A stretch of DNA of 64,000 nt. Origin: Candidatus Enterousia sp. (GTDB lineage: Bacteria > Pseudomonadota > Alphaproteobacteria > Rs-D84). Location of the stretch: positions 2,323-66,322 of the forward strand of contig JAZRLB010000004.1 in assembly GCA_045646625.1 (NCBI GenBank). Direction: 5' to 3'. Shown in pieces: positions 12,883-56,426 of this stretch. The translations under genes and the position numbers were made by a program. Positions within the stretch are counted from its first letter, which is position 1; the number at the start of each line of letters is the position of its first letter. Under the pieces are notes generated by a model. It made no database searches, was not told the DNA's origin, and worked only from the letters and a program-made list of their open reading frames with translations.

Positions 12883-12909
12883 AATCCCCCATTTTGGGGG
12901 ATTTTTATT
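12881..12909. terminator. bidirectional intrinsic terminator
   Basis: aaaatcccccattttgggggattttt. Confidence 0.7.
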
Positions 12910-14653
12910 AATGTTCTTCGCCGGGGTGTTCGGGCTGATATATTTCGACATCACGCGTCATAGCCAGGAATTTGTCAGCACGACGTGTTGACAATTCTGC
13001 TAGTGGAATTTGCTGCAGTTCCTTAATCTGTTCTGCAACAGAAGTAGCCAACAGTTCCATCGTTGTTTGCCAATCTGTATGAGCCCCACCAGCCGGCTCG
13101 TGAATTATTTCATCAATTACATTCATATCTGCCATATCGCGTGCAGTCAATTTCATAGCCGCGGATGCGGTTGCACGGAATTTGTTATCACGCCATAGAA
13201 TACTGGCGCATGATTCCGGCGCAATAACTGAATAGATTGCGTTTTCCATCATCAGAACACGATCGCCCGTTCCAATCGCAATCGCACCACCAGAACCGCC
13301 CTGCCCCGTGTTAACAGCAACATATGGTGTACGCATTGACAGCCCCGCTGCAATTGATGACGCAACAGCCTGGGATTGACCACGTTCTTCTCCTTCGCGT
13401 CCCGCAAAGGCACCAGCCGTATCAAACAGTGAAATCAATGGTAAATTAAATTTTTCAGCCAACTTCATCATACGAATAGCCTTGCGATAACCGTCTGGAT
13501 TAGCCATACCAAAGCGATGTTTTTGACGCGTTTCGATTGTGCGCCCCTGTTCCTGGCCAATAATAACGGCCGGAATACCACGCCAGAAACCAATACCAGA
13601 ACCCATTGCCGCATCTTCGGAACATAATCTGTCGCCGGCCAGGTATGTCCACTCATCAACAATTCCGTTAATATAATCCAAGAAGTGCGGACGGTTTTCG
13701 TGACGCGCAAGCAATACTTTATCGTACGCCTCGGTTTCACCCATACCACGAATCTTTTTAGACGCATCGTGCGCGGGTGTTGTGGCGATAATTTGCTTTG
13801 GCTCGCGTTCTTGTTTGGTCAAAACAGCCAGAATTTTTACAAGCGCATTATGCAATTCGCCACGCGCAACAACCATATCAACCATTCCGTGTTCGTACAG
13901 ATATTCAGCAGTCTGGAAATTTGACGGCAATTTTTCACGAATATTCTGTTCAATTACGCGACGACCTGCGAACCCAATGCGCGCACCCTTTTCTGCAATA
14001 TGAATGTCGCCCAGCATTGCAAAGGACGCAGTAACGCCACCAAACGTCGGATCTGTTAACAGCACAATATACGGTATGCCATTGGCATGCAATTTGTTAA
14101 CAGCGACCGTTGTTCGTGCCATTTGCATTAACGACAATATGTTTTCCTGCATACGGGCACCGCCACTGGCTGTAACCATAACAAATGGACGATGTTCGGC
14201 CACTGCGTGCTCCATAGCCGCAACAATAGCATCCCCCGCAGCGCGCCCCATAGACCCCATCATAAACAAACCGTTCAAGACACATACTGTGGATGGAATT
14301 CCACCAATTGTGCCATCGGCCGTCGATACCGCATCATAACAACCCGTTTCAGAACGCGCATCCGCCAATCGTTCTGTGTATGCGACACGGTCCGTAAATT
14401 TTAATGGATCGTCGGACGCACTTGGCGGCACCAGTTTTTCCCAGGTATTGTCGTCAAACAGTAAATCAAAACGCTGTTTCGGGGTCATAATAAACGCACG
14501 ACCACAGCTGGGGCATATATATTTATTGTCTTTGTAATCTTTGTAATAAACCAGCTTTCCACAGGCTTCACACTTAATCCACATCAGGCGACGTACGCGT
14601 TCGTAGCGTTCACGATTACGATTTTTAATACCCGACTTTTTTCCAAACAGCAT
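12908..14653 (-). CDS. accDA: acetyl-CoA carboxylase carboxyltransferase, fused beta (AccD) - alpha (AccA) subunits in one polypeptide
   Basis: N-terminal AccD zinc ribbon CEACGK...CPSCG and FVMVTASGGARMQE; C-terminal half matches AccA from RPHFLDY...GQGGSGGAIAIG...APESCASILW. Confidence 0.85.
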   Translation of the reverse strand: MLFGKKSGIKNRNRERYERVRRLMWIKCEACGKLVYYKDYKDNKYICPSCGRAFIMTPKQRFDLLFDDNTWEKLVPPSASDDPLKFTDRVAYTERLADARSETGCYDAVSTADGTIGGIPSTVCVLNGLFMMGSMGRAAGDAIVAAMEHAVAEHRPFVMVTASGGARMQENILSLMQMARTTVAVNKLHANGIPYIVLLTDPTFGGVTASFAMLGDIHIAEKGARIGFAGRRVIEQNIREKLPSNFQTAEYLYEHGMVDMVVARGELHNALVKILAVLTKQEREPKQIIATTPAHDASKKIRGMGETEAYDKVLLARHENRPHFLDYINGIVDEWTYLAGDRLCSEDAAMGSGIGFWRGIPAVIIGQEQGRTIETRQKHRFGMANPDGYRKAIRMMKLAEKFNLPLISLFDTAGAFAGREGEERGQSQAVASSIAAGLSMRTPYVAVNTGQGGSGGAIAIGTGDRVLMMENAIYSVIAPESCASILWRDNKFRATASAAMKLTARDMADMNVIDEIIHEPAGGAHTDWQTTMELLATSVAEQIKELQQIPLAELSTRRADKFLAMTRDVEIYQPEHPGEEH

Positions 14654-16263: not shown

Positions 16264-16354
16264 GGAGACGTGGCAGAGCGGTTGAATGCGCGCGACTCGA
16301 AATCGTGTATACGGCAACCCCGTATCAAGGGTTCAAATCCCTTCGTCTCCGCCA
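16264..16354 (+). tRNA. tRNA-Ser (anticodon CGA)
   Basis: Acceptor GGAGACG/CGTCTCC, T-arm AAGGGTTCAAATCCCTT, long variable arm, anticodon loop CTCGAAA, CCA end. Confidence 0.9.
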
Positions 16355-16391: not shown

Positions 16392-18206
16392 TTATTCTTG
16401 GATAAATCCACCGGACTGCATTTTCCACAGACGCGCATATTCGCCGCCACGACGCAATAATGTGGAATGGGCGCCCTGCTCGACCACGCGACCGTCTTTT
16501 AAGACGACTATGCGGTCCATATTGCGCAATGTGGACAGGCGGTGCGCAATTGCCAATGTAGTGCGACCGGCCGCCAATTCATCAAATGATTTCTGGATAC
16601 AGACCTCGGTTTCACTATCAAGGGCGGATGTGGCCTCGTCCAGAATCAAGATTGGGGCATTTTTCAAAAATGCACGCGCGATTGCGACGCGTTGACGTTG
16701 ACCGCCAGACAATTTGATTCCGCGGTCGCCGACCATAGAATCGTATTTCTTATCCGTTCCCATAATAAATTTGTGTGCCATGGCACGTTTAGATGCCGTA
16801 CGAATTTCACGGTCGGTTGCGCCAGGTTTGCCATATTCAATGTTTTCACGCAGGGTACGGTTGAACATTGTTGGTTCCTGGGGGATGAACGCAATTGATT
16901 CGCGCAAGGAATCTTGGGTCACATCACGAATATTTTGCCCGTCAATCAGGATTTCGCCGTGCGTTGGGTCATAGAAGCGCATTAACAGGTTCACCAACGT
17001 GGTCTTGCCTGCACCCGACGGACCAACCAAGCCGACGCGTTCGCCGCACTTGACTTTCAAATTGAAATTCCGCAGGACCCATTTGCGTTTGTATTTGAAC
17101 GAAACGTTTCGGAATTCAATTTCCCCACACGACACGGACAAAGCCGGCGCATTCGGCGCATCCATAACATCAATCGGGACCGCCAATTCTTCATAGGCAC
17201 GCGAGGCCGCCCCCAGAGTATCTGTAATATTTGGAATCTGGTTTACAATCTGACCAATTGTTCCCATAACCGTAAAGAACACAGAATTTGTAAACACGAT
17301 TTCTGCAACCGTTATTTTGTTATTCATATACAACCATACACACAGCAACAACGTTATGCCATAGCATATATCCCAGACAACCATAGGAAAACCCCAAAAC
17401 CAACGCTGGATATAATATTTGTACTTGTGTGCACGGACCGCCTTTTGACGCGACGGTTCCAGATATGCACGTTCGCGAGAAACACCCGCAAACAACTTGA
17501 CAACAGAAAAGTTTGAAATACTGTCCACGCTCTTCCCAGAAACCTCGCTGTTTGCACTGCTGTAATCTTTGGCGGATTTGTTCATTGGCTTTACCATCAC
17601 CCAACTGTATGTGGCACGAAAAACGAAAACAATCCCAAACATTATCGCAACATAGGTGTTGATAGAAAATATCAAACCCATATTAACGATAATCACCGCA
17701 AACAGACAAACAATACGCCAAAAATCAACGATGGCATCAAAGCCCTTGGTGACATACAAAATCTGGGTATGAACTTTGCCCGCCATTCGCCCCGTCCAAA
17801 ACGATATGGACTGGGAGTGAACATAATCGCTGAGCTCTGTCCAAATACGGTTTGATACAATTGGTTGCCAGCGAGCATAAAAAACACTGCGCAATAAAGC
17901 ACTGATATCTATTACCAATAACAGAACAACTATTAAAATAATTGTTGGCAGCGCGTGTGCCATAAAGGTCGTTCCAGCAGGTACAGGATTTTCAAACAGG
18001 CTGATAAACCAACGCTGAAAATTTGGGAACAGAACACCATCCATTGACACAATGAAAAAGAATATCGCCCAGGCAATAAGCGCGCCCCAAGAGCCCGGCA
18101 CCGCGTATTTGAAATAAAATTTCCACAGGGAACGCGGCAAGACCGCACTCTGTATTTTAGATTTTTTATTGGTTTTTTGTGATTTTCCAATGATTCTGTG
18201 TAACAT
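16392..18206 (-). CDS. ABC exporter, fused permease/ATPase (MsbA/lipid A exporter-like)
   Basis: Six N-terminal TM helices; Walker A GPSGAGKTT, signature LSGGQRQRVAIARA, Walker B ILILDEATSALD. Confidence 0.85.
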   Translation of the reverse strand: MLHRIIGKSQKTNKKSKIQSAVLPRSLWKFYFKYAVPGSWGALIAWAIFFFIVSMDGVLFPNFQRWFISLFENPVPAGTTFMAHALPTIILIVVLLLVIDISALLRSVFYARWQPIVSNRIWTELSDYVHSQSISFWTGRMAGKVHTQILYVTKGFDAIVDFWRIVCLFAVIIVNMGLIFSINTYVAIMFGIVFVFRATYSWVMVKPMNKSAKDYSSANSEVSGKSVDSISNFSVVKLFAGVSRERAYLEPSRQKAVRAHKYKYYIQRWFWGFPMVVWDICYGITLLLCVWLYMNNKITVAEIVFTNSVFFTVMGTIGQIVNQIPNITDTLGAASRAYEELAVPIDVMDAPNAPALSVSCGEIEFRNVSFKYKRKWVLRNFNLKVKCGERVGLVGPSGAGKTTLVNLLMRFYDPTHGEILIDGQNIRDVTQDSLRESIAFIPQEPTMFNRTLRENIEYGKPGATDREIRTASKRAMAHKFIMGTDKKYDSMVGDRGIKLSGGQRQRVAIARAFLKNAPILILDEATSALDSETEVCIQKSFDELAAGRTTLAIAHRLSTLRNMDRIVVLKDGRVVEQGAHSTLLRRGGEYARLWKMQSGGFIQE

Positions 18207-18370: not shown

Positions 18371-18399
18371 AAAAAAGGAATCCCGCCAGTTTGGCGGGA
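18371..18399 (-). terminator. intrinsic terminator downstream of GT6 gene
   Basis: tcccgccagtttggcggga hairpin followed by T-run on minus strand. Confidence 0.6.
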
Positions 18400-18402
18400 A
18401 AC

Positions 18403-19284
18403 TTAGATGGAACCAAAGTAATTTCTAACCCGACGGCGCAATTTGCGTGTCGGCATTAAAAACGCACCCCATTTACACCCAGGTATCATAACATTGCGAA
18501 CGAACCAGTTGTTCGGTATTCTGCGTTCAGACTGGCCACGCAGCCAGCGAACACCGCCGTATTTCGGATGTTCTTTGTGACGCGATATAACCTTGACCAT
18601 TGGCATTTCAACAGTGTTTACGTGCTTTAATTTACCTTCGGGGAAACCATAGGCACGACCGCACAGCAGATATTCTTTGTCGATCAAGTATGCGTTCAAA
18701 TGAGATTCATCGTCAACACGCGCAACAATGTTATTAGCCAAATCTATTTCGATGTTCTTTTTCAATTTTCTGCACATTTTCAAGAACGCTTCTGATGTGC
18801 CGCCATTGAATGCGCCACAAACATAGTGCTTGCCCTTGCCATATGGCACAAATGCAGTTGATTCGGGGCGACGTTCATAACCGAAACTGTCTGGATTGCC
18901 CGCAAAGACATCGCCACTGCGACCAGGATGACTGCCTGCAACAAGCCCATCATGCCATTCGCACGGTGTAATTTCAGATAAATCCACTGGGTTTACGAAC
19001 TGCATATTCGCGTTAAAAAAGTAGATATAGTCAAAATCTTTTAATTCCTTTTCACGCTGAAGGAACATATCAAAGCGCAGCAATGTGTCATATGGCCAAC
19101 CCTTTTTCTGGGCAGGTGTAATGTGTACGTTTGGTGCGTCCGAGTGGTCAAAATTTTCATTGTCGGTCCAAATAAAGTACTGCTTTTCACAAGGGCCTAG
19201 ATATTTTTCACAAGATTCATAAAAATCTTTCCAAAAAGAAATATATCGCCCCAGTGCAATGTATAAAATGGCAACTTTTTTCAT
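18403..19284 (-). CDS. glycosyltransferase family 6 (histo-blood-group A/B transferase-like), bacterial NXN variant
   Basis: DYIYFFNANMQF (NXN at the DXD position), YERRPESTAFVP, CGAFNGG, DDESHLNAYL all align with conserved GT6 blocks. Confidence 0.8.
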   Translation of the reverse strand: MKKVAILYIALGRYISFWKDFYESCEKYLGPCEKQYFIWTDNENFDHSDAPNVHITPAQKKGWPYDTLLRFDMFLQREKELKDFDYIYFFNANMQFVNPVDLSEITPCEWHDGLVAGSHPGRSGDVFAGNPDSFGYERRPESTAFVPYGKGKHYVCGAFNGGTSEAFLKMCRKLKKNIEIDLANNIVARVDDESHLNAYLIDKEYLLCGRAYGFPEGKLKHVNTVEMPMVKVISRHKEHPKYGGVRWLRGQSERRIPNNWFVRNVMIPGCKWGAFLMPTRKLRRRVRNYFGSI

Positions 19285-19568
19285 AAAAAACCCCTATATT
19301 TTGCAGCATAAGAATCGGGAAGTTCGACAAGACAGATAACCTTGACCTTGTGGTTTTGGGATACATAGATTACACCCGTTGCGTAGCCACAACCGCCCGT
19401 CTGTTATGTCGGGACAGTTAGTCAAAACAATTAAGTGTTAGTTATCTGGGTTATCGACGCCCAACTGTTAACTGACACGAATATGATATCGGAATATTTT
19501 CATAAACGCAATCATATATTCCTGAAATACGCTTGAATGGTTTTTCAATTTTTGCTATAATCCATTCT

Positions 19569-20738
19569 ATGAAAATCACCCGCAGAAATCTTTTGAAAAT
19601 TACAGGTGTATCAATTTTGGCGGCGGCGACATTGCCGCGCGTGGCATTTGCGGCACGAAATTCACTGAAATCACTGCGCACAGGCGTTCAACCAGGCGAC
19701 AAAACCAGACTGGTGATTGAAACGACGTCACGTCCATCATATTCGTTGGCGTATCCAAATGGGCAACTGGTGATTAATATCGCAAACACCGCTGCAAACA
19801 CCACGGTGACGGCAAATTTGGCGGCGGGTGGCCTGGTCAAATCTATTGCCCAGGCACAAAATGGCGACAGTTTACAAATCATCGCAAATTTAAAGCAGTC
19901 CATCGCACAGATTCCAAAGTCATCAATTATGATTCTGGAACCAAATGGTGACAATGATTACCGTTTGGTGCTGGATTTTGTGGCGGGCACAACAGGTTCA
20001 TCCAAAAAGGAAACGTACACAACCACTTCGGCCGCCACAACAACCGCGGTGACGGCAGCAAGAAAATATGTCATTGTCATTGATGCAGGCCACGGCGGCA
20101 AGGATCCAGGATGTATCGGCAAGGGCGGGACACGCGAAAAAGATGTCGTACTGTCGGTGGCAAAAAAACTGAAAAACAAATTGGATGCAAATGGATTTAA
20201 GACACACCTGACACGCAGTGGGGATACATATCTGAAATTGGCAGAACGTGCCGCAATCGCAGAAAAACGTAAGGCAGATTTGTTTATATCACTGCATGCG
20301 AATGCGAACCCCAGCCGAAAAATGAAGGGCTTTTCGATTTATACCCTGTCAGAAAAGGCGTCCGACGAAGAAGCAAAAAAGCTGGCCGAAGCAGAAAATG
20401 CCGCAGATAAAATCGGGGTCGAAGGTTTTACACAATTTGAAGAAAACATCCGAATTGCGCTGTCATCCCTGCAGCAACATGCGGTCGCAGAAATGAGCGA
20501 AGAATACGCTACGGGATGCGCTAAGTCATTCAAACGTGCCGACATTGAACAACAGCCAGGCCCAGACGTACGTCACGCACCATTCGCGGTATTACGTTCC
20601 ACTGTACCAGGGGCACTGTTGGAACTGGGGCATCTGTCAAATGCGAACGAAGAAAAATTATTAAAATCAGGTAAGCATCAGGATAAACTGGTGGCGGCAA
20701 TTGTAAAATCTGTGAAAAATTATAATTTTGAAGTATAG
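19569..20738 (+). CDS. amiC: N-acetylmuramoyl-L-alanine amidase (AMIN + Amidase_3 domains), Tat-type signal
   Basis: TRRNLLK twin-Arg signal; AMIN-like beta region; IVIDAGHGGKDPG...LFISLHANA catalytic Zn-binding motifs. Confidence 0.85.
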   Translation: MKITRRNLLKITGVSILAAATLPRVAFAARNSLKSLRTGVQPGDKTRLVIETTSRPSYSLAYPNGQLVINIANTAANTTVTANLAAGGLVKSIAQAQNGDSLQIIANLKQSIAQIPKSSIMILEPNGDNDYRLVLDFVAGTTGSSKKETYTTTSAATTTAVTAARKYVIVIDAGHGGKDPGCIGKGGTREKDVVLSVAKKLKNKLDANGFKTHLTRSGDTYLKLAERAAIAEKRKADLFISLHANANPSRKMKGFSIYTLSEKASDEEAKKLAEAENAADKIGVEGFTQFEENIRIALSSLQQHAVAEMSEEYATGCAKSFKRADIEQQPGPDVRHAPFAVLRSTVPGALLELGHLSNANEEKLLKSGKHQDKLVAAIVKSVKNYNFEV

Positions 20739-20802: not shown

Positions 20803-22482
20803 ATGGAGTTAAATGGTATTTATAAATATTTGCGAACCTCGGCGGCCCTTTTAGATAAGACGCTGGTCAAGATTGTGCATAAAAATTGTGTCCAGCTTTA
20901 TAAGACAGCGCTGAACAACAAAGATGAAACCATTGCGAATAACCTGGACGCAATGTACTACAGCGAATTATATGCGGCGGCCCGTAGTTCCGAGCCGGAA
21001 ATTATGCAACCATTAATGCAACGGCGCGCATATGAAATATATTCCAAACTGAAACAAAACAATGAATTTAATCAGATTGAAAAACTGATAAAAAGATATC
21101 CATACCAACTGCTTGTTGGGGCACAACGGGCACGAGATACCGCATGTGCAAAGTTAATATTAGATTTTTATGCATACGAAACGTATAAGACGGCACGGGA
21201 CACAGAAAACTATACGACTATGTCAAACGCCGCCGCACAGGCACACACACAGATTTATGTTACGGCCTTGGCAAAGAACGACCAGGATATATTGGAAAGC
21301 ATTTTATCGGGATATGCATATGACATTTATAAACAGCTAATTAGCACAAATAATGAAGAAGCGCTGAAATATCTGGAAGACAATTATGCTGTTGATATAT
21401 TTAATATAGCCAATCGACGTCTGGATTCCAAGACTGTGAATCTACTGGTATCAAAAAAGACTTATCAAATATTTATTAATTTAATGAATACAGATAATCT
21501 GATGGCTGGACGAATTGCGCGCGAATACCATACAAAACTGTATCTGGATGCAAAAACAATAGGGAATTGCGCGGCAATACAAACCGTTATAGACCTGCAC
21601 GCGTATGCTATTTATTCAGATTTGACAAAAATTGGCAATAAAACGGTTGCCAACGAATTTAAAGAACAATATTTTATACAAATATATGAAACAGCCGTTG
21701 CCAATGGCGCAATCAATATTCGTGATGATATGTTAAGTGCATACGGATATAAAATATATTTATACCTGGTGAGCAAAGCTGGCACAGACGCAAATATTGT
21801 CCTGGGGCACTGTTCGTCGGAATTTTGGGGACAGGTGTATCTGGATGCAAAAAAGGCAAGGAATACAAAGATAATTGGTACGTTAAGCCGTGCGCACGCC
21901 TATGATATTTTTATGGGACTAAGGGCCCTGGGGCAACCGGACTCGGCAGATGATTTCAGAAAAAAATATTTTATACTGATATATCTGTGGGCAATCGAAC
22001 GCAGGGACAAATCAATCCAACACGAAATGCTGAGCCTGTATCCATATCAGATTTATTCGTTTGCAATCAAAGAAAAATTAGAGTCTGTTGCAAGAATTAT
22101 AGAACAGGCCGCAGGACCACTGTGTTATGACATATATAAATCTGCGATAAAAGCCAACGACCAGGCGGCTATAAAGCAAATCACCAGATATAAGAACGAA
22201 ATTGAAAAAGCGGCTTTGTCGCACGGCGACGTGGATATTTTGCGCACAATAAGAACACGATTCCAGTCAAGTCTGAATATTGCGGCCATCGGTAAAGAAT
22301 CGCGTGCAATGCGCGACGCCGAGCCTGCGGCCCCAAAACAGGACGAAGAAACTGTTGTTCCAAAGGATTTGGATGATTATATTGGATGGATAAGTAAGCC
22401 AGACCCAAGGTATACAATGGAGAAGATACCCGGCCAAAAAGGCGCTCAAAACTACCCCGATCATCATGATAACTGGGATTAA
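20803..22482 (+). CDS. hypothetical protein built of about 14 tandem 18-residue aromatic repeats (Y[AGP]Y.IY..L / [YF]..IY..A)
   Basis: Recurrent YAYDIY, YAYETY, HAYAIY, YGYKIY, YPYQIY, CYDIY motifs at about 18-aa spacing; no signal peptide. Confidence 0.6.
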   Translation: MELNGIYKYLRTSAALLDKTLVKIVHKNCVQLYKTALNNKDETIANNLDAMYYSELYAAARSSEPEIMQPLMQRRAYEIYSKLKQNNEFNQIEKLIKRYPYQLLVGAQRARDTACAKLILDFYAYETYKTARDTENYTTMSNAAAQAHTQIYVTALAKNDQDILESILSGYAYDIYKQLISTNNEEALKYLEDNYAVDIFNIANRRLDSKTVNLLVSKKTYQIFINLMNTDNLMAGRIAREYHTKLYLDAKTIGNCAAIQTVIDLHAYAIYSDLTKIGNKTVANEFKEQYFIQIYETAVANGAINIRDDMLSAYGYKIYLYLVSKAGTDANIVLGHCSSEFWGQVYLDAKKARNTKIIGTLSRAHAYDIFMGLRALGQPDSADDFRKKYFILIYLWAIERRDKSIQHEMLSLYPYQIYSFAIKEKLESVARIIEQAAGPLCYDIYKSAIKANDQAAIKQITRYKNEIEKAALSHGDVDILRTIRTRFQSSLNIAAIGKESRAMRDAEPAAPKQDEETVVPKDLDDYIGWISKPDPRYTMEKIPGQKGAQNYPDHHDNWD

Positions 22483-22501
22483 TTAGCGGAGGATAGATAA
22501 T

Positions 22502-23830
22502 ATGTCGGAATTCGTAGCAGGTATAGATTTTGGAACCAGTAATTCAACCGTCACCATCGTCGGGCCAGATGGCGTGCCACAGATGATTATGCTGGAACCG
22601 GACAGTTTTACCATGCCGTCGGTAATGTTCTTTGAAACAGACAAACAAACAGATGAAATAACCGCATATTTTGGTACGGCGGCTGAACAGATGAATGCAA
22701 AATATCCGACCGACGGCCGAATGATGCGCGCCATAAAAAGTATTCTGGGAACAGATTTGACACAACAAAACGCCACAATTGGGTTCAAGAAAAAGCCTTA
22801 TCTGGAAATTATTCGTGACTTTTTGTTTGAAATAAAACTGGCTGCGGATATCAAGGCGGGCGAAAATATTGATTCTGTGGTTTTGGGGCGCCCCGTGCAT
22901 TTTACAAAAACACCCAGCGCGGAATCAGATAAACTGGCCGAAGATGCGCTTAGGCTAATTGCAGAAAACCTGGGATTTAAAAATATCGCGTTCCAATATG
23001 AACCTATCGCGGCTGCGTTCGCACACGAACAAAAACTGAAAATTGGCGAAGAAAAATTAACGGTTATTATCGACATTGGCGGTGGTACGTCGGATATTTC
23101 AATAGTAAGATTGTCAGGTGACCGAAAAAATATGCTTGACCGCAGCAAAGATATACTGTCGAATTCAGGCGTCAGGATTGGGGGACGTGATTTTGACAAA
23201 GCGCTGTCCAAGGGGGCGTTTATGCCGCACTTTGGTCAAGGAGGACAATCCCAAAAGCCTGAAAAAAAATTCTTGCGAAATAAAAAAATACTGTCACCTA
23301 TTCCTGTTGAACCCTTTGATAACCTGTCCACCACACACAATATTGTGAAATTGTACGACGGAAAAACACTGAGGTTGATTGATGCCCTGATACCGCATGA
23401 GTGCGAACCAAAACGATTACATCGTATGCGCGAGGTTATTGTTAGACAATTAGGACATACACATTTGGCCTATGTCGAGAAATCTAAGATACAATTAAGC
23501 GATAAAAAAAGCATCACTATGAAGTTAGACTATCTGACCGATAAGCCCAAAGTGACAATTAAGCGCGATGAATTTGAAGGATTTATTGAAAAAGATATAA
23601 AATCAATTAAAACTAAAATAAACGAAGCCCTCAAAAATGCAGGGGTGACATCTGCTGATATCGAACTGGTGGTGCTGACAGGCGGCTCAAGCCAAATCCC
23701 GTGTGTAATTGATACCACACGCAAAATGTTCCCCAACGCCGAAATGTCATCAAGCAATGTGATGACGTCCGTAGGGCTGGGGTTGGCATATGATGCAAAA
23801 CGACGCAAAAACCAGAACAATTGGCAGTAA
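22502..23830 (+). CDS. yegD: Hsp70-family actin-like ATPase, YegD-like (no substrate-binding domain)
   Basis: IDFGTSNS phosphate-1, AFQYEPIAAA, VIIDIGGGTSDISIV phosphate-2, LTGGSSQIP adenosine motif; 442 aa. Confidence 0.75.
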   Translation: MSEFVAGIDFGTSNSTVTIVGPDGVPQMIMLEPDSFTMPSVMFFETDKQTDEITAYFGTAAEQMNAKYPTDGRMMRAIKSILGTDLTQQNATIGFKKKPYLEIIRDFLFEIKLAADIKAGENIDSVVLGRPVHFTKTPSAESDKLAEDALRLIAENLGFKNIAFQYEPIAAAFAHEQKLKIGEEKLTVIIDIGGGTSDISIVRLSGDRKNMLDRSKDILSNSGVRIGGRDFDKALSKGAFMPHFGQGGQSQKPEKKFLRNKKILSPIPVEPFDNLSTTHNIVKLYDGKTLRLIDALIPHECEPKRLHRMREVIVRQLGHTHLAYVEKSKIQLSDKKSITMKLDYLTDKPKVTIKRDEFEGFIEKDIKSIKTKINEALKNAGVTSADIELVVLTGGSSQIPCVIDTTRKMFPNAEMSSSNVMTSVGLGLAYDAKRRKNQNNWQ

Positions 23831-23893: not shown

Positions 23894-24916
23894 ATGTCAG
23901 TTAAGGCAAAACGCCTGATTAAGAAAATTATCAGTTATTCAGGCATATTCTTTTTCACGTTGGCCGCGGTTATGTTGTGGTGGCAATTGCGTAATTACAG
24001 TTTATCAGATATCGCACACGCGATTCTGGACATCCCACTTCTTAATTTGACGATGGCCTGTGCGGCCTGCCTTGCTGGGTATCTGGCGCTGTCACTGTAT
24101 GATTATTTGGCGCTGAACTATGTTGGCGGCAAGGTGACGTGGTGGAAGTGGATGCTGGCGGGGATGCTGGGGTTTGCAATCAGCAATAACGCAGGTCACG
24201 CTGTTGTTAGCGGGGGCGCAATTCGATATCGACTGTATACGCGCTGGCGTATTCGTGGGGGCGATATTGTAAAAATGCTGACGATATCAGGTTTTACATA
24301 CTTCCTGGGGGCGGCGGCCATTGTGATAATCAGCTATTTTATGGTGCCGCACAGTATGTTCCAGAACTCTATCGGGGCCAGCGTCGGAATTAACGCGCTG
24401 TTTATGTTCTGTTTGGTGACACTGTTGCTGTATTTTTCTGTTGCAACCTTCTTTCACAAGAAAAGTATTAAAATTGGTGAAATAAAATTTCAAATCCCAT
24501 CCGTTAAAATGGCATTTACGCAGACAATTTTGGGAATCACAGACAGTGTGCTGGCTGGATTGGTGCTGTACTGCTGTTTAACACCCTTTGTGGAAATTCC
24601 GTTTGTCGTGTTTATGGGCCTGTTTGCAATCGCACAATCAACGGGTGTTTTCAGCCAGGTTCCAGGTGGAATCGGCGTTTTTGAAACAGTATTTTTGGTC
24701 GCCCTGCCCGACACTGTTGACAAGGCAAATATTTTTGGCGCACTGTTAGCATATCGTATAATTTATTATGTGCTGCCGCTGATTGGTATGGGCGGGTTAT
24801 TTTTCGTTTATGAAAGATGGCTGCGGTCGCGTATGAAAAGATGGCTGAACGAAGCCAAAGAAAAAATCCCAGCCAAAATCAAAAGCATAAAATCTGAGAT
24901 AAAAATCAGAAAATAA
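23894..24916 (+). CDS. UPF0104 / lysyl-phosphatidylglycerol-synthase-TM-like (flippase-like) membrane protein
   Basis: 8 predicted TM helices; conserved GGAIRYRLY motif of the MprF flippase-like domain. Confidence 0.6.
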   Translation: MSVKAKRLIKKIISYSGIFFFTLAAVMLWWQLRNYSLSDIAHAILDIPLLNLTMACAACLAGYLALSLYDYLALNYVGGKVTWWKWMLAGMLGFAISNNAGHAVVSGGAIRYRLYTRWRIRGGDIVKMLTISGFTYFLGAAAIVIISYFMVPHSMFQNSIGASVGINALFMFCLVTLLLYFSVATFFHKKSIKIGEIKFQIPSVKMAFTQTILGITDSVLAGLVLYCCLTPFVEIPFVVFMGLFAIAQSTGVFSQVPGGIGVFETVFLVALPDTVDKANIFGALLAYRIIYYVLPLIGMGGLFFVYERWLRSRMKRWLNEAKEKIPAKIKSIKSEIKIRK

Positions 24917-44856: not shown

Positions 44857-44932
44857 GGCCCCATCGTCTAGAGGCCTAGGACACCGCCCTTTCAAGGCGA
44901 GAACACCGGTTCGAATCCGGTTGGGGCTGCCA
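44857..44932 (+). tRNA. tRNA-Glu (anticodon UUC)
   Basis: GGCCCCATCGTCTAGAGGCCTAGGACACCGCCCTTTCAAGGCG...GGTTCGAATCCGG...CCA; anticodon loop CTTTCAA. Confidence 0.9.
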
Positions 44933-45055: not shown

Positions 45056-46819
45056 TTATACACCGTGCTGTTCTCCTGAACTATCAATATCTTTGGTAAT
45101 AATTATTTTAGAAACAGCGTTTGTTCCTTTTTTAATTTTTCTAGTCTTAGTTTCTATCAACTCTTTTTTGTATTCTTTAAACCAAGCCTGTAATTCACTT
45201 ACCGAATCAAAATATCTGCCAGACTCACTCGGAAAATATTCTCGCGCTTTTGGCAACCCTTCCAATGACTCTAAGTTTTCTGCACAGAAAGAGAAAAGAC
45301 CTCCTATTTCTTTTGGCGCCCCCTTCAAAGATTTTAATTTATTTCCTTCGGAGCACAAAAAATTTCTCCCAACCCTTCTTGGGCTCCCATATAATGTAAT
45401 CAACTGATTACCTCTACATATAAAATCATCCGCAACCTCCTCCGGTCCACCACTTAGGCTTGTCAATTTATTATGTTCACAACCAAAGGTACCGTTGATT
45501 ATTTTTGGCGCCCCTTTCAATGTGGTTAATTCATTAAAATCACAATAAAAAGACCTTCCAACATATTCTGGCGCACCGTGTAGCGATGTTAATTTATTAC
45601 CGCGTATATAAAAATATCCATCAACTAATTTTGGGAACCCTTCTAAAGACTCTAACACCCCATCAATAATCCTAATATCACCCGTAATTTTTAATTTGGA
45701 TATATTTGGAAAATGCGAAATCTCAATCTTTTGAAAACAGATTGCTGGAATTTCTGTGCCAGATGCCAAATCTACTATATTTTTTATATTACCATCGTTG
45801 TCTATAACGTACAACTGCCCACTTCTGCAAAATACAACTCCCGCATCCATAGGATCAAAGGTTTTGTTTTCATCAAATCTTTTTTGCGGGATTAAGGACA
45901 ATTTTTTCTGACGAATAAAATAATTTTTCGTCATCCCAAAAGCATCATCAAATTCACGAGACAGTGTTGCCATGTTATTTTTATATCTACATGTTCTAGG
46001 GGAAATGGATTTTTGCAAATTCCATGGCAGCCCTTTACGAGATACAAAATTTATACAATGCGGATAAGTTTCATATTCTTTACCATATAACAAGATAGGT
46101 TTATTTCCTAATTTCATTATAAAAATATCATTGTCTGTACGTATCGATTCATCGTGATATTTATCCGAAAGATCTAATGGAAAAAAAGATACCTCTATAC
46201 CATTTAACACGCTTCTAAAACAATATTTACCGATATCTCCTGGCATATCAAACCACCACCAAAGCCCCGCAGAGGCATCAACATATCTAATTCTTATATT
46301 AAAATATTCATAAAATCGTTTTCTAAAAACATATCCCTGGTCAGCATATACTTTTTCCTCGTCATAAACTGATTGCCCTGCTTCATCGTCCCACAAAAAT
46401 AAGCATCTTAAAAAAATACTTGTTTTGATACAATAATTGAACAATGTCAGCGCATCCTGCTTTGTTAACGAAACATCTGGTTTGTTAAAATTGTTCACAA
46501 TTCTGCTGATGTTTTTTTCTAACTCAATCGAACTTCTGTCATTGCAATCTTTATGAACAGCAACCATAAATTCAGATTCTATTTTTGAAAAGACCTTCTT
46601 TTCGCCCGTAGCACTTTTCGCAGCAAACCTGGAGTAAATATGTTCAAAATTTACACTACCGTTTTTAATATCTTCTTCAGTGTACGAGTTGCCACAAAAA
46701 GGACACGTGCCATATACGCCATCGGAAATACCGACACGATAGCCCTTTGCATTCCCTTTTTCATCACGATACAATTCTGGTTTTTTATTTTTCATAATTA
46801 GTACTATATCATAAAACAC
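45056..46819 (-). CDS. hypothetical 587-aa protein: N-terminal HNH-like zinc-finger motif, central region, C-terminal about seven 22-residue LxSLxGAPxxVxGxFxCxxNxL repeats
   Basis: GTCPFCGNSYTEEDIKNGSVNFEHI; repeats KLTSLHGAPEYVGRSFYCDFNE / LTTLKGAPKIINGTFGCEHNK / LTSLSGGPEEVADDFICRGNQ etc.; AT-rich coding sequence. Confidence 0.6.
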   Translation of the reverse strand: MFYDIVLIMKNKKPELYRDEKGNAKGYRVGISDGVYGTCPFCGNSYTEEDIKNGSVNFEHIYSRFAAKSATGEKKVFSKIESEFMVAVHKDCNDRSSIELEKNISRIVNNFNKPDVSLTKQDALTLFNYCIKTSIFLRCLFLWDDEAGQSVYDEEKVYADQGYVFRKRFYEYFNIRIRYVDASAGLWWWFDMPGDIGKYCFRSVLNGIEVSFFPLDLSDKYHDESIRTDNDIFIMKLGNKPILLYGKEYETYPHCINFVSRKGLPWNLQKSISPRTCRYKNNMATLSREFDDAFGMTKNYFIRQKKLSLIPQKRFDENKTFDPMDAGVVFCRSGQLYVIDNDGNIKNIVDLASGTEIPAICFQKIEISHFPNISKLKITGDIRIIDGVLESLEGFPKLVDGYFYIRGNKLTSLHGAPEYVGRSFYCDFNELTTLKGAPKIINGTFGCEHNKLTSLSGGPEEVADDFICRGNQLITLYGSPRRVGRNFLCSEGNKLKSLKGAPKEIGGLFSFCAENLESLEGLPKAREYFPSESGRYFDSVSELQAWFKEYKKELIETKTRKIKKGTNAVSKIIITKDIDSSGEQHGV

Positions 46820-49056: not shown

Positions 49057-49629
49057 TCAACAATAAACGTGGAATAAAACACACCAATTTGCATCCGTCA
49101 GTTCCGTTTTGGTGCCCATATCACGGTGACAAGCCCAGTATTTTTGCGCCCCAACCATCAGACGGATATTAAGGCCGTTTTTATCAACAAAGCAATTTAT
49201 GCGCGGGCAATCATATTCCCCAACCCCAAACGCCCAAACCACATCACCGGCGACATAGCCGGCTTCGTCATTCTGACAAATAAGCGCGGCACGTACAAAA
49301 TGGGGCATTTGTTCACCACCAAACACATAATTTAGGTGTGCAGTTTTTGAATTTATGGGAACAGGCATAGTTTCGGTCACAGTAAATGGCGTGGGCGCGT
49401 GTTTAGCAAATAAATCAGACCACATTTCATCAGGAACCGCTGTTATATCAAATGTTCCGGTGTTGGTTGCCGCATCATCCGCGCGACGCAGTGCAAACCC
49501 GCCCAGCGTTTCGCCATCGTGAATGCGCAAAGTTTTTGCATCAATATCCATTGTTATTTCACCAGGCAGTCCGGTAAAATCGTTGTTTTGTGCGGCGGTG
49601 CCGCGTCTTATTTGAAGTACACGTGTCAT
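49057..49629 (-). CDS. hypothetical protein with phage tail-fibre-type N-terminal motif
   Basis: Start MTRVLQIRRGTAAQNNDFTGLPGEITMDIDAKTLRIHDGETLGG resembles the conserved N-terminus of phage/GTA tail fibre proteins; AAGGA SD upstream. Confidence 0.5.
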   Translation of the reverse strand: MTRVLQIRRGTAAQNNDFTGLPGEITMDIDAKTLRIHDGETLGGFALRRADDAATNTGTFDITAVPDEMWSDLFAKHAPTPFTVTETMPVPINSKTAHLNYVFGGEQMPHFVRAALICQNDEAGYVAGDVVWAFGVGEYDCPRINCFVDKNGLNIRLMVGAQKYWACHRDMGTKTELTDANWCVLFHVYC

Positions 49630-49650
49630 AAGTAATCCTTTTTTCATGAA

Positions 49651-49677
49651 AATAAAAAGCCCGCCAGTTGGCGGGGC
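49651..49677 (-). terminator. intrinsic terminator for gene ending at 49750
   Basis: cccgcc-agtt-ggcggg hairpin followed by T-run on minus strand. Confidence 0.55.
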
Positions 49678-49749
49678 AAAAAAACAAACGCCATCGTTCC
49701 CGATGACGCATGTGTGTATTATAGCATAAATTAACAAAAAAATCAAGTA

Positions 49750-50481
49750 TTAGCGTATAATTTGCGCTGTACGATTTATCAGCGTTTGTCGAACAGTTTG
49801 TTGTCGGCCACCACACATCGGCCAAGCAGTGCATGACACATCGCATATCGTGCCATTTGCAGTGACCGTCAGATTCCGGATAAGCGTGCTGTACATCCTG
49901 ACTGGGGCAAGTATGCGATTTACATCCCGTATATCCTCGTCCCTTTGTTTATTCCACCATTTAAGATTTGTTTCATTGCGATACTCCAGAGAGTACCTGG
50001 CTTTACGTTCCTCTTCTTCCATGGTTTCCTTTATAAATTCTTTGGAGTATGGTTCCAATTTGTGCACCTCTCCCTGTAATACACGCAGTTGTTCGTATAT
50101 ATGCTTGTACTTTTCATAATGTCTGGCAAGGTCAGCTTCCTTGGATGAGAAAGAAAAAATCCAAGAAAGTTTTTCATAGCCTTCTGCATCTTCTAGCAAC
50201 GCGCCCTTGATAAGAATAGAACGGTGCCGTTTTTTAAAATCTTCCAGGCGTTGTTTCGCGACAACATACAAAGGTTCCGTTTGTATGTGTTTTGTTCGCA
50301 AATCATTTCGCAAACGGGCAAGTTCGGCACTAACGTTTACTTCGCCTGAATATTTTTGTTGATAGATATTCTGTAATTTGGATATCGCCTGGGAATATTT
50401 TACATATTCGGAATAAGAAATCTCTTTGAAGACGAAAGTGCCAAGATTGCCAACCGCATAAGGAATGCGAATAGTAGTCAT
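49750..50481 (-). CDS. hypothetical protein (about 243 aa, helical, Glu/Lys-rich centre)
   Basis: ORF with probable start MTTIRIPYAVG; no family recognised. Confidence 0.45.
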   Translation of the reverse strand: MTTIRIPYAVGNLGTFVFKEISYSEYVKYSQAISKLQNIYQQKYSGEVNVSAELARLRNDLRTKHIQTEPLYVVAKQRLEDFKKRHRSILIKGALLEDAEGYEKLSWIFSFSSKEADLARHYEKYKHIYEQLRVLQGEVHKLEPYSKEFIKETMEEEERKARYSLEYRNETNLKWWNKQRDEDIRDVNRILAPVRMYSTLIRNLTVTANGTICDVSCTAWPMCGGRQQTVRQTLINRTAQIIR

Positions 50482-50555
50482 AATCAACCCCTTTTGGGGA
50501 TTATTACACACGGCATCCAATTGTCAACAGATTTAGCGCACAACGGCCCAGCATC

Positions 50556-52928
50556 TTAGGCGGCGATAGAATGCGAACTGTTATAGTCGGCAATTAGGGT
50601 ACTTACCTGGCCATTAAAACGCTTTTGTGCGTTTTTCGCACTAAGATTTCTGAACCAATTGTACATAGGCCCGGTTTTGGTGTTTCGCCCTGTTTCCAAC
50701 ATATTCCAGTATTTAACCAATTCTTCCAAATCATCAACATGAGTGGCATCCCAATTGCGCACTTCTTCTTCATGGCGTGTTATCTGTTCGTTTAATTGAT
50801 CCAGCAATTCTTGACCATTTACTAGATGTTCTAACAGTCTTTGTCTTGTACCCAGTCGTCTTCTGTTCAGTTTCAGGGTTGGGAAACCGGTTTCTATGGC
50901 GTCCAGGTGGGCCTGCAACGGCGCGCCGGTACCGGTCAGTGTTGGCTTTGGTTTCAAAGTGTCTGAATTAATTGAGTCCAGGAAATCACTCACCGCTTCG
51001 TATTCAGTTTGATTCGCGATCGGATCCCATGCGCCACCACCGGTCACATTATTGTATGTTTGGGCCAAGGCGGTTCTCAATGCCTGAACATTCGCAGCGC
51101 AGAAAGTGTCTATGGCGGTTATGTATCCTTGGATGTCATGTTCCATGTTTGCTTTTGCAACGTCGTACGTATGTCCACGACGAATTCTGTCAACGGTGGC
51201 TTGGGTTGTGGCTTGTTGTGCGCGTTCACTGGTCAGCAACCTTTCAAGCGCCACCTTGTCGGCGGCCTGTTTGTCTAAATAGGCGTTGTGTTCGGCCGCG
51301 AAATTTCCACTTTTATCAGAATATTGTTTGATTTTGCTGCCTGACAGGTTTATCGCATTACCAACCATAGTTATGCCATAGCCAATACCCATAAGTGCGG
51401 TTTTGATACCTTTGTCCAACGCTTTGGTGACAACCTGCATTCCTTCGTTTTTATTCCATGACAATTTGTCGTGGGAAAAGATGCTTAGTTTTTCTTTGCC
51501 CAGGGCATCCATAATCTTGCTGGTGGTATAGTCGTAATGTAATACGGAAATCAGTTCCAATGCGGTCTTGGCTTCGTCCTTTTTGCCTTCTTTGATTGCG
51601 CGTATCATGATTTCTTTGACCAAAGCCTGCATATGCGTGCCATTTTTCAAAGCACCGGCCCAGACCTTGGATATTTTTGGGTCGTTTTTCAATGCGTTCA
51701 GCGTTTTGTCAAACCATTCAAGATGCTTTTTTGCTTTGAACTCGCGCGCACCCTGCAATTTGTCTTTTGCGTTGCCGATGTTTTTTAATACACCATCCAG
51801 ACCGTCCGTTTTTTTCAGTCCTTTGCGCAAATGCTTGCAAATTGCTTTGGCTTCTGGCGAAAAAAACAACTCGTCGCCTTTGAGTTTTGCATATTTTTCC
51901 AGGCAGTCAGAATATGTATCACCCCACCATTCAGACAAGCGTTCCGGCAAGGTCAGAGTATCTTCGCGCTTCGGCTGCACATAATCTTCACTTTTTGGAT
52001 CGTCGTATGATTGATTCTTTATCGCCTTGTTCAACGGCCCAGAAATTTTACCGTCATCGTATTGTTCAAAAACTTCGCGAACTTTTGAATCGCGCCGAAG
52101 CGTATCTAACAAAGTTCTGTATTCGTGTTTGAATTGTTCCAGACGAAATACCGAGATATTATCGTCATCAAACCACGCGGAAGTATCGCTGCAATCTGGG
52201 ATTTCTGATGGATTTGTAATCCCCAGACGTTGTTGCATGGTTGTGTCACCCGCGATATAACCGTCAATAACCTGAGCAACTTTTTCCAGGTTCTTTCTGA
52301 ACTTTGGGTTTTTGTTATATTTTTCCGAGACAATTCCACCCAACAAATCATCATATGAAAAATCGTCAGTCAACAATCCCCAGTTTTTTAATTGCAACTC
52401 TAAACGATTTTTATACTTGGTCAAAAAACCATGAAGTGTAACCGCCGTTGAGCCAGCAGGGGCTGGACCAATTTTTTGCTTGCCGGCGGCGGTCGCCTTG
52501 GTGTATTGGAACAAATGGTGGATGGTCGTTGTACCAGATGTATGCGAACCAAAGTACGTGTCCAGGAATTTTGTGGCCTTGTCATTATACTTGAAATCCT
52601 TCCGGGCCCCATCCATTGACTGAAAGGCGCTCTGAAAGGCCTTGAACATTTTTTTCCATTCTTTGTCGTCGGCCCCCAGATACATTTCATCGGCGGGGTC
52701 CTCTGGGTCGGGCAAAGCCTTCTGTATATAAATATTCGTTTCAGGAACGGTTTCAAATTCACCGGTTGCGGGGTTTTTCTTTAATAATTCTTCCGCCCAG
52801 ATTTTCTGGTTGTCGGTCGCCTTTTTATCCCGGATATAGCCACAAAATTGCACAAATTGCTCGTGCGACATTTCACGAAATATCAGCCTGTTGTAATAAG
52901 CTGTCAAAAAATCTTTCATATTAGCCAT
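50556..52928 (-). CDS. large hypothetical protein (about 790 aa), no signal peptide, Lys/Asp-rich, effector-like
   Basis: Probable start MANMKDFLTAYY; no family recognised; co-oriented with preceding gene. Confidence 0.5.
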   Translation of the reverse strand: MANMKDFLTAYYNRLIFREMSHEQFVQFCGYIRDKKATDNQKIWAEELLKKNPATGEFETVPETNIYIQKALPDPEDPADEMYLGADDKEWKKMFKAFQSAFQSMDGARKDFKYNDKATKFLDTYFGSHTSGTTTIHHLFQYTKATAAGKQKIGPAPAGSTAVTLHGFLTKYKNRLELQLKNWGLLTDDFSYDDLLGGIVSEKYNKNPKFRKNLEKVAQVIDGYIAGDTTMQQRLGITNPSEIPDCSDTSAWFDDDNISVFRLEQFKHEYRTLLDTLRRDSKVREVFEQYDDGKISGPLNKAIKNQSYDDPKSEDYVQPKREDTLTLPERLSEWWGDTYSDCLEKYAKLKGDELFFSPEAKAICKHLRKGLKKTDGLDGVLKNIGNAKDKLQGAREFKAKKHLEWFDKTLNALKNDPKISKVWAGALKNGTHMQALVKEIMIRAIKEGKKDEAKTALELISVLHYDYTTSKIMDALGKEKLSIFSHDKLSWNKNEGMQVVTKALDKGIKTALMGIGYGITMVGNAINLSGSKIKQYSDKSGNFAAEHNAYLDKQAADKVALERLLTSERAQQATTQATVDRIRRGHTYDVAKANMEHDIQGYITAIDTFCAANVQALRTALAQTYNNVTGGGAWDPIANQTEYEAVSDFLDSINSDTLKPKPTLTGTGAPLQAHLDAIETGFPTLKLNRRRLGTRQRLLEHLVNGQELLDQLNEQITRHEEEVRNWDATHVDDLEELVKYWNMLETGRNTKTGPMYNWFRNLSAKNAQKRFNGQVSTLIADYNSSHSIAA

Positions 52929-53039
52929 AATCGCACCTTTAACTATCCTGTTTATTATAGTGTAAATTTGACAAAATTTCAATATTTTCTGTACTTTTTT
53001 TGTGGATTTTGGTTATATTTTTCTTGGAAAGGACGATTT

Positions 53040-56350: not shown

Positions 56351-56426
56351 GGGGACATAGCTCAGTTGGTAGAGCAAATGACTTTTAATCATTGGGTCCA
56401 GGGTTCGAGTCCCTGTGTCCCCACCA
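56351..56426 (+). tRNA. tRNA-Lys (anticodon UUU)
   Basis: GGGGACATAGCTCAGTTGGTAGAGC...anticodon loop CTTTTAA...GGGTTCGAGTCCCTGTGTCCCCACCA. Confidence 0.9.

Follow-up and report, generated by a model that had tools for sequence, protein, structure and literature searches.

The gene described here lies in a 64,000-nucleotide stretch of Candidatus Enterousia sp. DNA (contig JAZRLB010000004.1); the whole stretch is called the window below, and coordinates refer to it unless a related locus is named. The gene occupies positions 18403..19284 on the minus strand, where an open reading frame (ORF) runs from an ATG at 19284 to a TAA stop and encodes a 293 amino acid (aa) glycosyltransferase of CAZy family GT6. 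A Shine-Dalgarno-like ribosome-binding site (AGGGG, 19291..19295, minus strand), read from the sequence, is found 6 nucleotides (nt) 5′ of the start codon. The order of genes around it is an MGMT-like gene (minus strand), a tRNA-Ser gene (plus), an ABC exporter gene (minus), GT6 (minus) and an AmiC gene (plus). The exporter gene (16392..18206) encodes an ABCB-type half-transporter with Pfam ABC_membrane and ABC_tran domains and lies outside the GT6 transcription unit. On the other side, divergent from GT6, an AmiC-type N-acetylmuramoyl-L-alanine amidase with the Pfam domains AMIN and Amidase_3 is encoded at 19533..20738. We confirmed that the GT6 gene encodes a bacterial homolog of the ABO blood-group enzymes of humans, and that it falls within the already described metal-independent bacterial group of this family.

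The first-pass annotation, made from the sequence alone, had called the product a 293-aa GT6 enzyme, and on this point Pfam, NCBIfam, the match to the Bacteroides ovatus enzyme BoGT6a and the predicted fold all agree. Pfam PF03414 (Glyco_transf_6) matched with an E-value of 1.7e-23 and 83.3 bits, against a gathering score of 25, and the cut-off of 250 for NCBIfam NF041524 (Gltr_6) was barely cleared at 251.1 bits. When the sequences of the PDB were searched, BoGT6a (4ayj) was found with E=3.6e-45 over residues 3-250 of the product, followed by human GTA and GTB at about 1e-18 and bovine alpha-1,3-galactosyltransferase (alpha3GalT) at about 1e-13. An AlphaFold2 model built on a 98-sequence alignment (pLDDT 93.3, pTM 0.90) gave the same ranking in a Foldseek comparison with the PDB: BoGT6a (4cj8_E) was the best match, with a target TM of 0.90 and a root-mean-square deviation of 2.1 Å, and human GTA/GTB and the bovine enzyme came next with TM values of 0.67-0.73. 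The catalytic GT-A domain comprises residues 1-250 (18535..19284, minus strand) and aligns with BoGT6a residues 2-244, which constitute the minimal functional GT6 construct (PMC3961637). The conserved GT6 blocks are colinear with those of human GTB in a HMMER alignment, as had been claimed. These are YERRPESTAFVP at residues 136-147 (human counterpart YERRPQSQAYIP), GAFNGG at 157-162 (GAFFGG in GTB) and DDESHLN at 191-197 (human HDESHLN), and the equivalent of human E303 is retained as Glu193 in all 85 close homologs. The last block is present as annotated, but its spelling as (H/D)DESHLN hides a clade-specific replacement of His by Asp at the residue that contacts O6′ of the donor.

Three groups of GT6 proteins are recognized, namely vertebrate multi-domain enzymes with a DXD motif, prokaryotic and phage enzymes that also have DXD (Parachlamydia, cyanophage P-SSM2), and bacterial enzymes with NXN (PMC3516806, PMC3961637). 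Members of the bacterial NXN group have a minimal N-terminal catalytic domain, are metal-independent and end in a basic-hydrophobic-basic (BHB) membrane-association domain (PMC3516806, PMC3961637); cation-independent activity was demonstrated by experiment for BoGT6a (PMC3516806). In the protein studied here, N91-A-N93 (19006..19014, minus strand) aligns with N95-A-N97 of BoGT6a, where the animal enzymes have DVD, so that the annotated replacement of DXD by NXN is upheld. N91 is invariant and N93 almost so among 98 sequences, and NAN was present in 107 of 110 aligned homologs. Having NXN instead of DXD, the enzyme is predicted to be metal-independent. Lys231 and Arg243, which in BoGT6a bind the diphosphate of uridine diphosphate (UDP) in place of a metal (PMC3516806, PMC3961637), correspond to K237, which is invariant, and R249, which is at least 90% conserved. 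The Asp192-Glu193 pair (Asp191-Glu192 of BoGT6a) is kept in 85 of 85 close homologs, and the two enzymes further share Y136-E-R-R (Y135-E-R-R in BoGT6a) and R70 (R73).

The BHB tail comprises residues 251-293 (18403..18534, minus strand, stop codon included), as delimited by charge, predicted helices and conservation. It contains 10 Lys or Arg versus a single Asp or Glu, for a net charge of about +9, compared with 33 basic and 33 acidic residues in the catalytic body. Its hydrophobic core (260-277) is flanked by R254-R255/R263 and by R279-R287, helices are predicted at 260-274 and 280-287 in the AlphaFold2 model, and a BHB tail is kept in about 85 full-length homologs. This C-terminal tail is a predicted membrane-association domain of the bacterial GT6 type. 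Judged by its sequence, the gene thus displays every sequence feature by which the bacterial NXN group is defined, with cation independence predicted from the NXN motif only.

About 90 database proteins of 287-305 aa are 53-94% identical to the GT6 product, and nearly all of them carry N-A-N, C-G-A-F-N-G-G and V-D-D-E-S-H-L-N. The last of these includes V190-D191-D192-E193 (18706..18717, minus strand), which is the version of the W-H-D-E catalytic loop proper to this subclade, E193 being the equivalent of BoGT6a E192 and human E303. V190 occurs in 81 and D191 in 83 of 85 close homologs. Asp stands at the His position in 83 of 90 close homologs and in none of the 144 best representatives of the wider family, nearly all of which have His. 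Since Trp-His is a conserved feature and not a formal criterion of the family, Val-Asp argues for an altered specificity rather than against GT6 membership. The second distinctive element is the segment C156-G-A158-F159 (18808..18819, minus strand), which corresponds to human residues 266-269 and to A155-G-G-L158 of BoGT6a, and which has a role in donor specificity (PMC3516806, PMC4202792); CGA is present in 87 of 90 close homologs. The same segment reads A-G-G-L in the GalNAc-specific BoGT6a, L-G-G-F in GTA, M-G-A-F in GTB and H-A-A-L in alpha3GT. Position 266 is the main determinant of the donor, as Leu accommodates the acetamido group and Met does not (PMC4202792). It had been proposed that the donor be read from the equivalents of human 266 and 268. 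We could locate both, as Cys156 and Ala158, but they match neither the GTA (Leu266/Gly268) nor the GTB (Met266/Ala268) pattern and most resemble the dual-specificity cis-AB mutant L266G/G268A, structures of which are among the Foldseek matches. Because the small Cys and Ala fit neither pattern, the donor assignment by this route is ambiguous, and it was set aside.

The acceptor side of the active site has also changed. Trp189 of BoGT6a, which stacks on the acceptor in all solved GT6 structures, is replaced by Val190, and His190, whose NE2 atom is hydrogen-bonded to O6′ of the donor (PMC3516806, Table 4), is replaced by Asp191. Among the other acceptor contacts of BoGT6a, Trp218 has become Lys, Ile228 Ser, Thr134 Gly (Pro in most relatives), Phe125 Arg and Lys128 Asp. 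These substitutions, those of W189, T134, F125 and W218 among them, stand beside the retained pocket residues H119, Y154 and E193, and the positions that discriminate for fucose, His119, Gly121 and the small residue at 228, are permissive. The subclade, with its V-D-D-E loop, C-G-A segment and long tail, is a distinct one, and its predicted acceptor pocket is unlike that of the characterized A and B synthases. It is found in gut Alphaproteobacteria of the Rs-D84/Enterousia type and in some Bacteroidales, a distribution across phyla that is consistent with transfer within the gut. In the family as a whole, the patchy distribution asserted in the first-pass annotation was seen, but in metagenomic data the family is not rare. 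Scanned exhaustively with HMMER, 1.84 billion cluster representatives yielded 2,276 GT6-related clusters (at 50% identity) with E<=1e-3, 253 of them with E<=1e-30.

The genes that surround subclade GT6 genes in other genomes point to surface glycans. The window itself contains lpxA and lpxB, and the organism thus makes lipid A. On Bacteroidales contigs, recognized by nearby Por_Secre_tail proteins of the type IX secretion system, GT6 lies directly downstream of a GT61-family gene, and the same loci also hold Wzy_C, PAP2, GT2, GT4, Caps_synth, pyruvyl transferase and epimerase genes. Two alphaproteobacterial lineages have GT6 inside a recA-typA island of 7-8 glycosyltransferases that include GT61, GT92 and RgpF. 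In a related reduced-genome bacterium (locus L020, positions 10001-20864 of contig CAYBZM010000001.1, which at 886,885 bp is nearly as long as a genome), GT6 heads a compact cluster of the lipopolysaccharide (LPS) core type with a GT32-like gene, GT9 (the heptosyltransferase family), GT8, an acyltransferase, HldE, GmhA, GmhB, an ADP-heptose 6-epimerase (388 bits, the cut-off being 275) and a final ABC_membrane/ABC_tran gene. In Enterousia proper, GT6 is now an orphan, found for example between MreB and SspB (L003) or next to CvpA-L33 (L021); no GT61, GT92, GT2, RgpF, GT9, GT8 or heptose-pathway gene was found in the window or in the Enterousia-type loci, save a GT2 gene in one of them (L004). 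By analogy with these relatives, a role of GT6 on LPS-core, O-chain or capsule intermediates is supported. The LPS role proposed in the annotation therefore stands on the gene context of relatives, but not on the exporter from which it had been argued.

A GT61-family gene of about 400 aa recurs at about 1 kb or less from subclade GT6 genes (L012 7910-9109, L015 6626-7879, L017 6739-7983 and L019 11958-13148). It does so in four contexts, of which L015/L016 and L017/L018 are from Bacteroidales and L012 and L019 from Alphaproteobacteria, and the identity among these GT61 proteins is 40-62%. GT61 is a large family in its own right, with 244 proteins at E<=1e-10, and neither the family search nor a cluster look-up gave an organism name that places GT61 in Enterousia. 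We regard GT61 as a candidate functional partner of subclade GT6.

Our preferred reading, which we consider probable, is that the product is a retaining GT-A glycosyltransferase that works without a metal, a member of the bacterial NXN branch of CAZy GT6 that is produced from its own transcription unit and belongs to a distinct subclade. Building on what is observed (family, fold, motifs, tail, monocistronic organization, purifying selection and the glycan/LPS context in relatives), we infer its linkage, donor, acceptor, membrane topology and any role in host mimicry. The 250-residue catalytic domain would bind a UDP-hexose, UDP-Gal or UDP-GalNAc, with Asn91, Lys237 and Arg249 replacing the role that Mn2+ has in animal GT6 enzymes and Glu193 and Asp192 acting in catalysis. 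A terminal alpha-linked Gal or GalNAc would then be added onto a lipid-linked glycan containing beta-Gal(NAc). The 43-residue cationic-hydrophobic-cationic tail would hold the enzyme to the inner membrane on its cytoplasmic side, where intermediates of the LPS core, O-chain or surface polysaccharides would be assembled before export.

The first-pass annotation had taken the adjacent exporter, called MsbA-like, as a clue to the GT6 product. The two genes could indeed form a functional module, in which the exporter, as MsbA or a glycolipid flippase, would move a GT6-modified lipid-linked product across the inner membrane. They are on the same strand, the exporter gene lying only 196 nt 3′ of GT6, the ABC_membrane plus ABC_tran architecture is MsbA-like with MsbA models among the top NCBIfam matches, and the LPS-core cluster of L020 also ends in a gene of this architecture. 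However, a strong intrinsic terminator-like hairpin with a T-run (18371..18399, minus strand) is found 4 nt past the GT6 stop codon. The hairpin (18399-18381) has an 8-bp stem with 6 G-C pairs and a 3-nt loop, and a promoter-like site lies between the terminator and the exporter gene. Nine of 12 relatives also have a hairpin and T-run, of other sequence, after the GT6 stop. Nor is the exporter a regular neighbor: no ABC exporter was found within about 6 kb of GT6 in 10 of 12 alphaproteobacterial loci. In the two others (L001 and L010) an ortholog of the exporter with 93-95% identity lies 3 kb from GT6 in convergent orientation, and in L001 an HU-like gene, a secreted-protein gene and prfB stand between the two. 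The terminator and the non-conserved adjacency indicate that the GT6/exporter neighborhood is a local rearrangement and not an operon, and GT6 is predicted to be transcribed on its own. As for the exporter, the annotated likeness to MsbA holds for architecture, but the protein falls under every NCBIfam cut-off, with 367 bits against 733 for the best model (a glucan exporter), 357 against 780 for an MsbA-related one, and 354.6 against 602 and 281.9 against 867 for the MsbA equivalogs TIGR02203 and NF008381. Among solved half-transporters, Atm1 and Sav1866 (about 300 bits) outscore MsbA (270 bits), and the available 99-aa fragment of the L020 exporter shows no significant similarity to that of the window. 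With the terminator, the unconserved adjacency and the sub-threshold exporter, a GT6-ABC operon or functional module was rejected, and we hold it to be very unlikely. A still smaller chance, close to nil in our judgment, is given to GT6 being a decaying or non-functional remnant of a glycan cluster lost from a shrinking genome. The window has no other glycosyltransferase, and the genomes of this lineage are down to 0.75-1.0 Mb (PMC12306168), as such a loss would have it. Yet the ORF is intact and full length, all catalytic residues are conserved, and orthologs with their own terminators are kept in at least 12 species-level genomes. Moreover, the gene is under strong purifying selection, with a ratio of nonsynonymous to synonymous substitution rates (dN/dS) of about 0.05, close to the values for AmiC, AccDA and the exporter gene; the ratio refers to the pairs that allowed an estimate, as dS was saturated for several others.

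Several points weigh against the reading as a Gal- or GalNAc-transferring NXN enzyme. Not only W189/H190 but also W218, I228, T134, F125 and K128 have been replaced, so that the donor, the acceptor and even the linkage could differ from those of characterized GT6 enzymes. The phylogeny suggested in the annotation was carried out as a neighbor-joining tree, which left out WbnI and BgtA and carries no bootstrap support values; in it, the gene falls within its subclade, a single group on a long branch. No other glycosyltransferase and no flippase, polymerase or ligase partner was found in the window, and the link to LPS comes from relatives with an identity of only 54-66%. One special case of the preferred reading is a true histo-blood-group A or B synthase, which would add alpha-1,3-GalNAc or Gal onto Fuc-alpha-1,2-Gal (H-type) on LPS and so produce the host-mimicking A/B-like epitope that had been announced from the sequence. 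Acceptors of the Fuc-alpha-1,2-Gal type serve all three bacterial NXN enzymes whose function has been characterized, namely BoGT6a, WbnI of E. coli O86 and BgtA of H. mustelae (PMC4202792). Two of the three positions that separate fucose-accepting enzymes from alpha3GalT, His119 and Gly121, are fucose-permissive, and the third, the equivalent of Ile228, is a small Ser and not a blocking Trp (PMC3516806); the host lineage, besides, inhabits animal guts. On the other hand, with Val standing for Trp189, Gly for Thr134, Lys for Trp218, Arg for Phe125 and Asp for Lys128, most of the contacts that BoGT6a makes with 2′-fucosyllactose are lost, and the recurring neighbor is a GT61-family enzyme instead of a fucosyltransferase. 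A search for fucosyltransferase and H-antigen genes, which the annotation had recommended, found neither a GT11 or GT10 fucosyltransferase nor GDP-fucose genes, whether in the window or in the seven annotated neighborhoods of relatives (L003, L012, L015, L017, L019, L020 and L021), the other loci, among them those of the nearest Enterousia relatives (L001 and L004-L010), having been screened only by tblastn with window proteins and the L012/L020 partner genes (L001 also by ORF listing). With these acceptor changes, the replacement of His by Asp and the Cys/Ala pair added, the A/B-like epitope is not established, and we consider it possible but unlikely.

Somewhat less likely still, in our opinion, is that the replacements of His by Asp and Trp by Val have retuned the pocket for another donor (UDP-Glc, for example, or a hexose modified at C6) or for an acceptor that is not Gal and may be charged, so that neither an alpha-Gal nor an A/B-type epitope would be made. 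The residues concerned are those that in BoGT6a contact the donor O6′ (NE2 of His190) and stack on the acceptor (Trp189; PMC3516806), and the new Asp is as good as confined to the subclade (83 of 90 close homologs against 0 of 144 wider representatives). New charged residues (R122, D125 and K220) line the predicted acceptor site, and the consistent partner is GT61 and not a fucosyltransferase. Against such a change of chemistry, no replacement has occurred in Arg70, in the G-x-x-N-G-G segment or in Asp192, the residue in contact with O4′ that selects the galacto configuration; Asp could still form a hydrogen bond with the C6 hydroxyl, and we found no experimental precedent. The preferred reading of a metal-independent NXN-type GT6 can also be carried further, although only as a speculation that we consider unlikely. 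The V-D-D-E/C-G-A subclade could be a functionally distinct GT6 lineage that makes a conserved terminal epitope of the alpha-galactosyl type on the LPS of the whole gut-restricted Rs-D84/Enterousia order, either linear-B/alpha-Gal-like or new and made with the recurrent GT61 partner. If so, the retention of a lone constrained gene in genomes of about 0.8-1 Mb would imply that the epitope matters in the gut, be it for host tolerance, adhesion or contact with partner cells. The uncultured Rs-D84 bacteria would then be a widespread and overlooked source of antigen for natural anti-Gal or anti-B antibodies.

The closest known enzyme is BoGT6a (PDB 4AYJ, 4AYL, 4CJ8, 4CJB and 4CJC), with about 38% identity over residues 3-250, the same minimal GT-A domain and a TM of 0.90. 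The two have in common N-A-N, the Asp-Glu pair, the equivalents of Lys231/Arg243, the Y-E-R-R block and a C-terminal basic/hydrophobic membrane tail (PMC3516806, PMC3961637). They differ in the catalytic loop (W189-H190 in BoGT6a, V190-D191 here), the donor segment (A-G-G-L versus C-G-A-F) and the acceptor contacts T134, F125, K128, W218 and I228. The protein studied here also has a 5-residue insertion after G121, another of 4-6 residues near position 225 and a tail of 43 residues compared with 17, and its host is a reduced-genome alphaproteobacterium and not a Bacteroides. The vertebrate enzymes (human GTA/GTB and bovine alpha-1,3-galactosyltransferase) share the GT-A fold, the colinear YERRP.S.A..P, G.F.GG and DESHLN blocks and the catalytic Glu (Glu303/Glu317). 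However, they have DXD where NXN is found here, structural alignment gives an identity of about 24-25%, and their N-terminal transmembrane and stem region is missing from the bacterial protein, with membrane association predicted for the C-terminal tail instead; the equivalents of W300/H301 are Val/Asp and those of 266/268 are Cys/Ala. WbnI of E. coli O86 and BgtA of Helicobacter mustelae, which make the B and A antigens on O-antigen/LPS, belong to the NXN clade by their description in the literature (PMC4202792), and subclade relatives of our gene are likewise found in O-antigen, capsule or LPS-core loci. Their O-antigen clusters include an alpha-1,2-fucosyltransferase (WbwK in O86, PMC4202792), whereas the gene described here is a lone unit with no fucosyltransferase in view. 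The GT6 proteins of Parachlamydia acanthamoebae and cyanophage P-SSM2 resemble it in family and in having a minimal catalytic domain, but they are metal-dependent DXD enzymes that lack a BHB tail (PMC3516806). NXN and the long BHB tail thus set the gene apart from the amoeba-symbiont type of GT6 that had been mentioned in the annotation.

Bacterial GT6 enzymes have been proposed as the microbial source of the A/B and alpha-Gal-like antigens that elicit natural anti-blood-group and anti-Gal antibodies, and they are central to the debate over whether ABO-family genes have passed horizontally between bacteria and vertebrates. Our finding is a well-supported annotation with corrections and not a new system; its points of note are the host lineage, the active-site variant, the GT61 partner and the spread across phyla. 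With it, the metal-independent clade comes to include an entire lineage of gut Alphaproteobacteria, uncultured and with reduced genomes, from ruminant, mouse and other animal gut metagenomes. Species of Ca. Enterousia have also been named from chicken and horse feces. The natural active-site variant (V-D-D-E, C-G-A) lends itself to enzymology, and an alpha-Gal- or B-like product, should it prove to be one, would have a bearing on anti-glycan immunity driven by the microbiota.

Enterousia (GTDB order Rs-D84, Alphaproteobacteria) comprises uncultured bacteria of the animal gut with genomes of about 0.75-1.0 Mb and a very limited metabolism (PMC12306168). The species-representative genomes in which we found relatives are metagenome-assembled genomes (MAGs) from the caecum of yaks, the colon of goats and the gut of wild mice, several of them named Candidatus Enterousia sp. 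Their housekeeping proteins are 85-96% identical to those of the window and their gene order is conserved. The divergent AmiC/GT6 pair is the unit conserved in the Enterousia-type loci L001, L002, L004, L006, L008, L009 and L010. In L001, L004, L006 and L010 it also follows AccDA-IHF-Prx-MGMT, an order likewise seen in L005, where GT6 is preceded by a gap of 2.6 kb. AmiC is probably a conserved neighbor of GT6 by synteny only. Recent horizontal acquisition was looked for in the composition of the GT6 gene and rejected, as no signal was seen (GC z=-0.34, third-position GC z=0.06, both typical of the genome) and GT6 is syntenic with AmiC across the genus. The GT6-AmiC intergenic region had no Rfam match for an RNA element.

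The listed TTG start of AmiC is probably too early, and the likely true start is Met13 (nt 19569). From there the protein begins with MKITRRNLLKITG...AFA, a stretch resembling twin-arginine signal peptides, and the AMIN domain comes next. A tRNA-Ser(CGA) gene (16264-16354, plus strand) marks the point at which the gene order of the window departs from that of relatives, where the MGMT-like gene is followed by AmiC, and suggests that this site is a rearrangement breakpoint. At 12908-14653 (minus strand), AccD (residues 15-282) and AccA (281-567), the beta and alpha subunits of acetyl-CoA carboxylase carboxyltransferase, are fused in a single 581-aa protein; the fusion is full-length in related MAG loci as well.

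Downstream of AmiC, the region 20803-23830 (plus strand) encodes a 559-aa internally repetitive protein with motifs of the Y.Y.IY type and no Pfam or NCBIfam match. It is directly followed by a YegD-like protein of the Hsp70 family (PRK11678, 236 bits against a cut-off of 331). The next protein, of 340 aa (23894-24916, plus strand), is similar to MprF in the transmembrane flippase part alone (LPG_synthase_TM; residues 9-317 of the 841 of the NCBIfam model for bifunctional MprF) and has no synthase domain. Beside a tRNA-Glu gene (44857-44932), a 587-aa ORF (45056-46819, minus strand) has a GC content of 0.345 (z=-3.4 relative to the other genes), internal repeats with a 63-nt period and no Pfam match, and may be a horizontally acquired or fast-evolving repeat protein. 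The region 49057-52982 (minus strand) encodes a 229-aa protein with an Mtd_N domain (Major-tropism-determinant N-terminal domain, E=4.6e-12) and, downstream of its gene on the same strand, ORFs of 256 aa (49750-50520) and 808 aa (50556-52982) that match no family. A diversity-generating retroelement was considered near the Mtd_N gene and rejected, with no template/variable repeat pair and no reverse transcriptase found nearby. Finally, a tRNA-Lys gene was located at 56351-56426 and a class A bacterial RNase P RNA at 57095-57423 (minus strand), the latter with 169 bits against a gathering score of 100.

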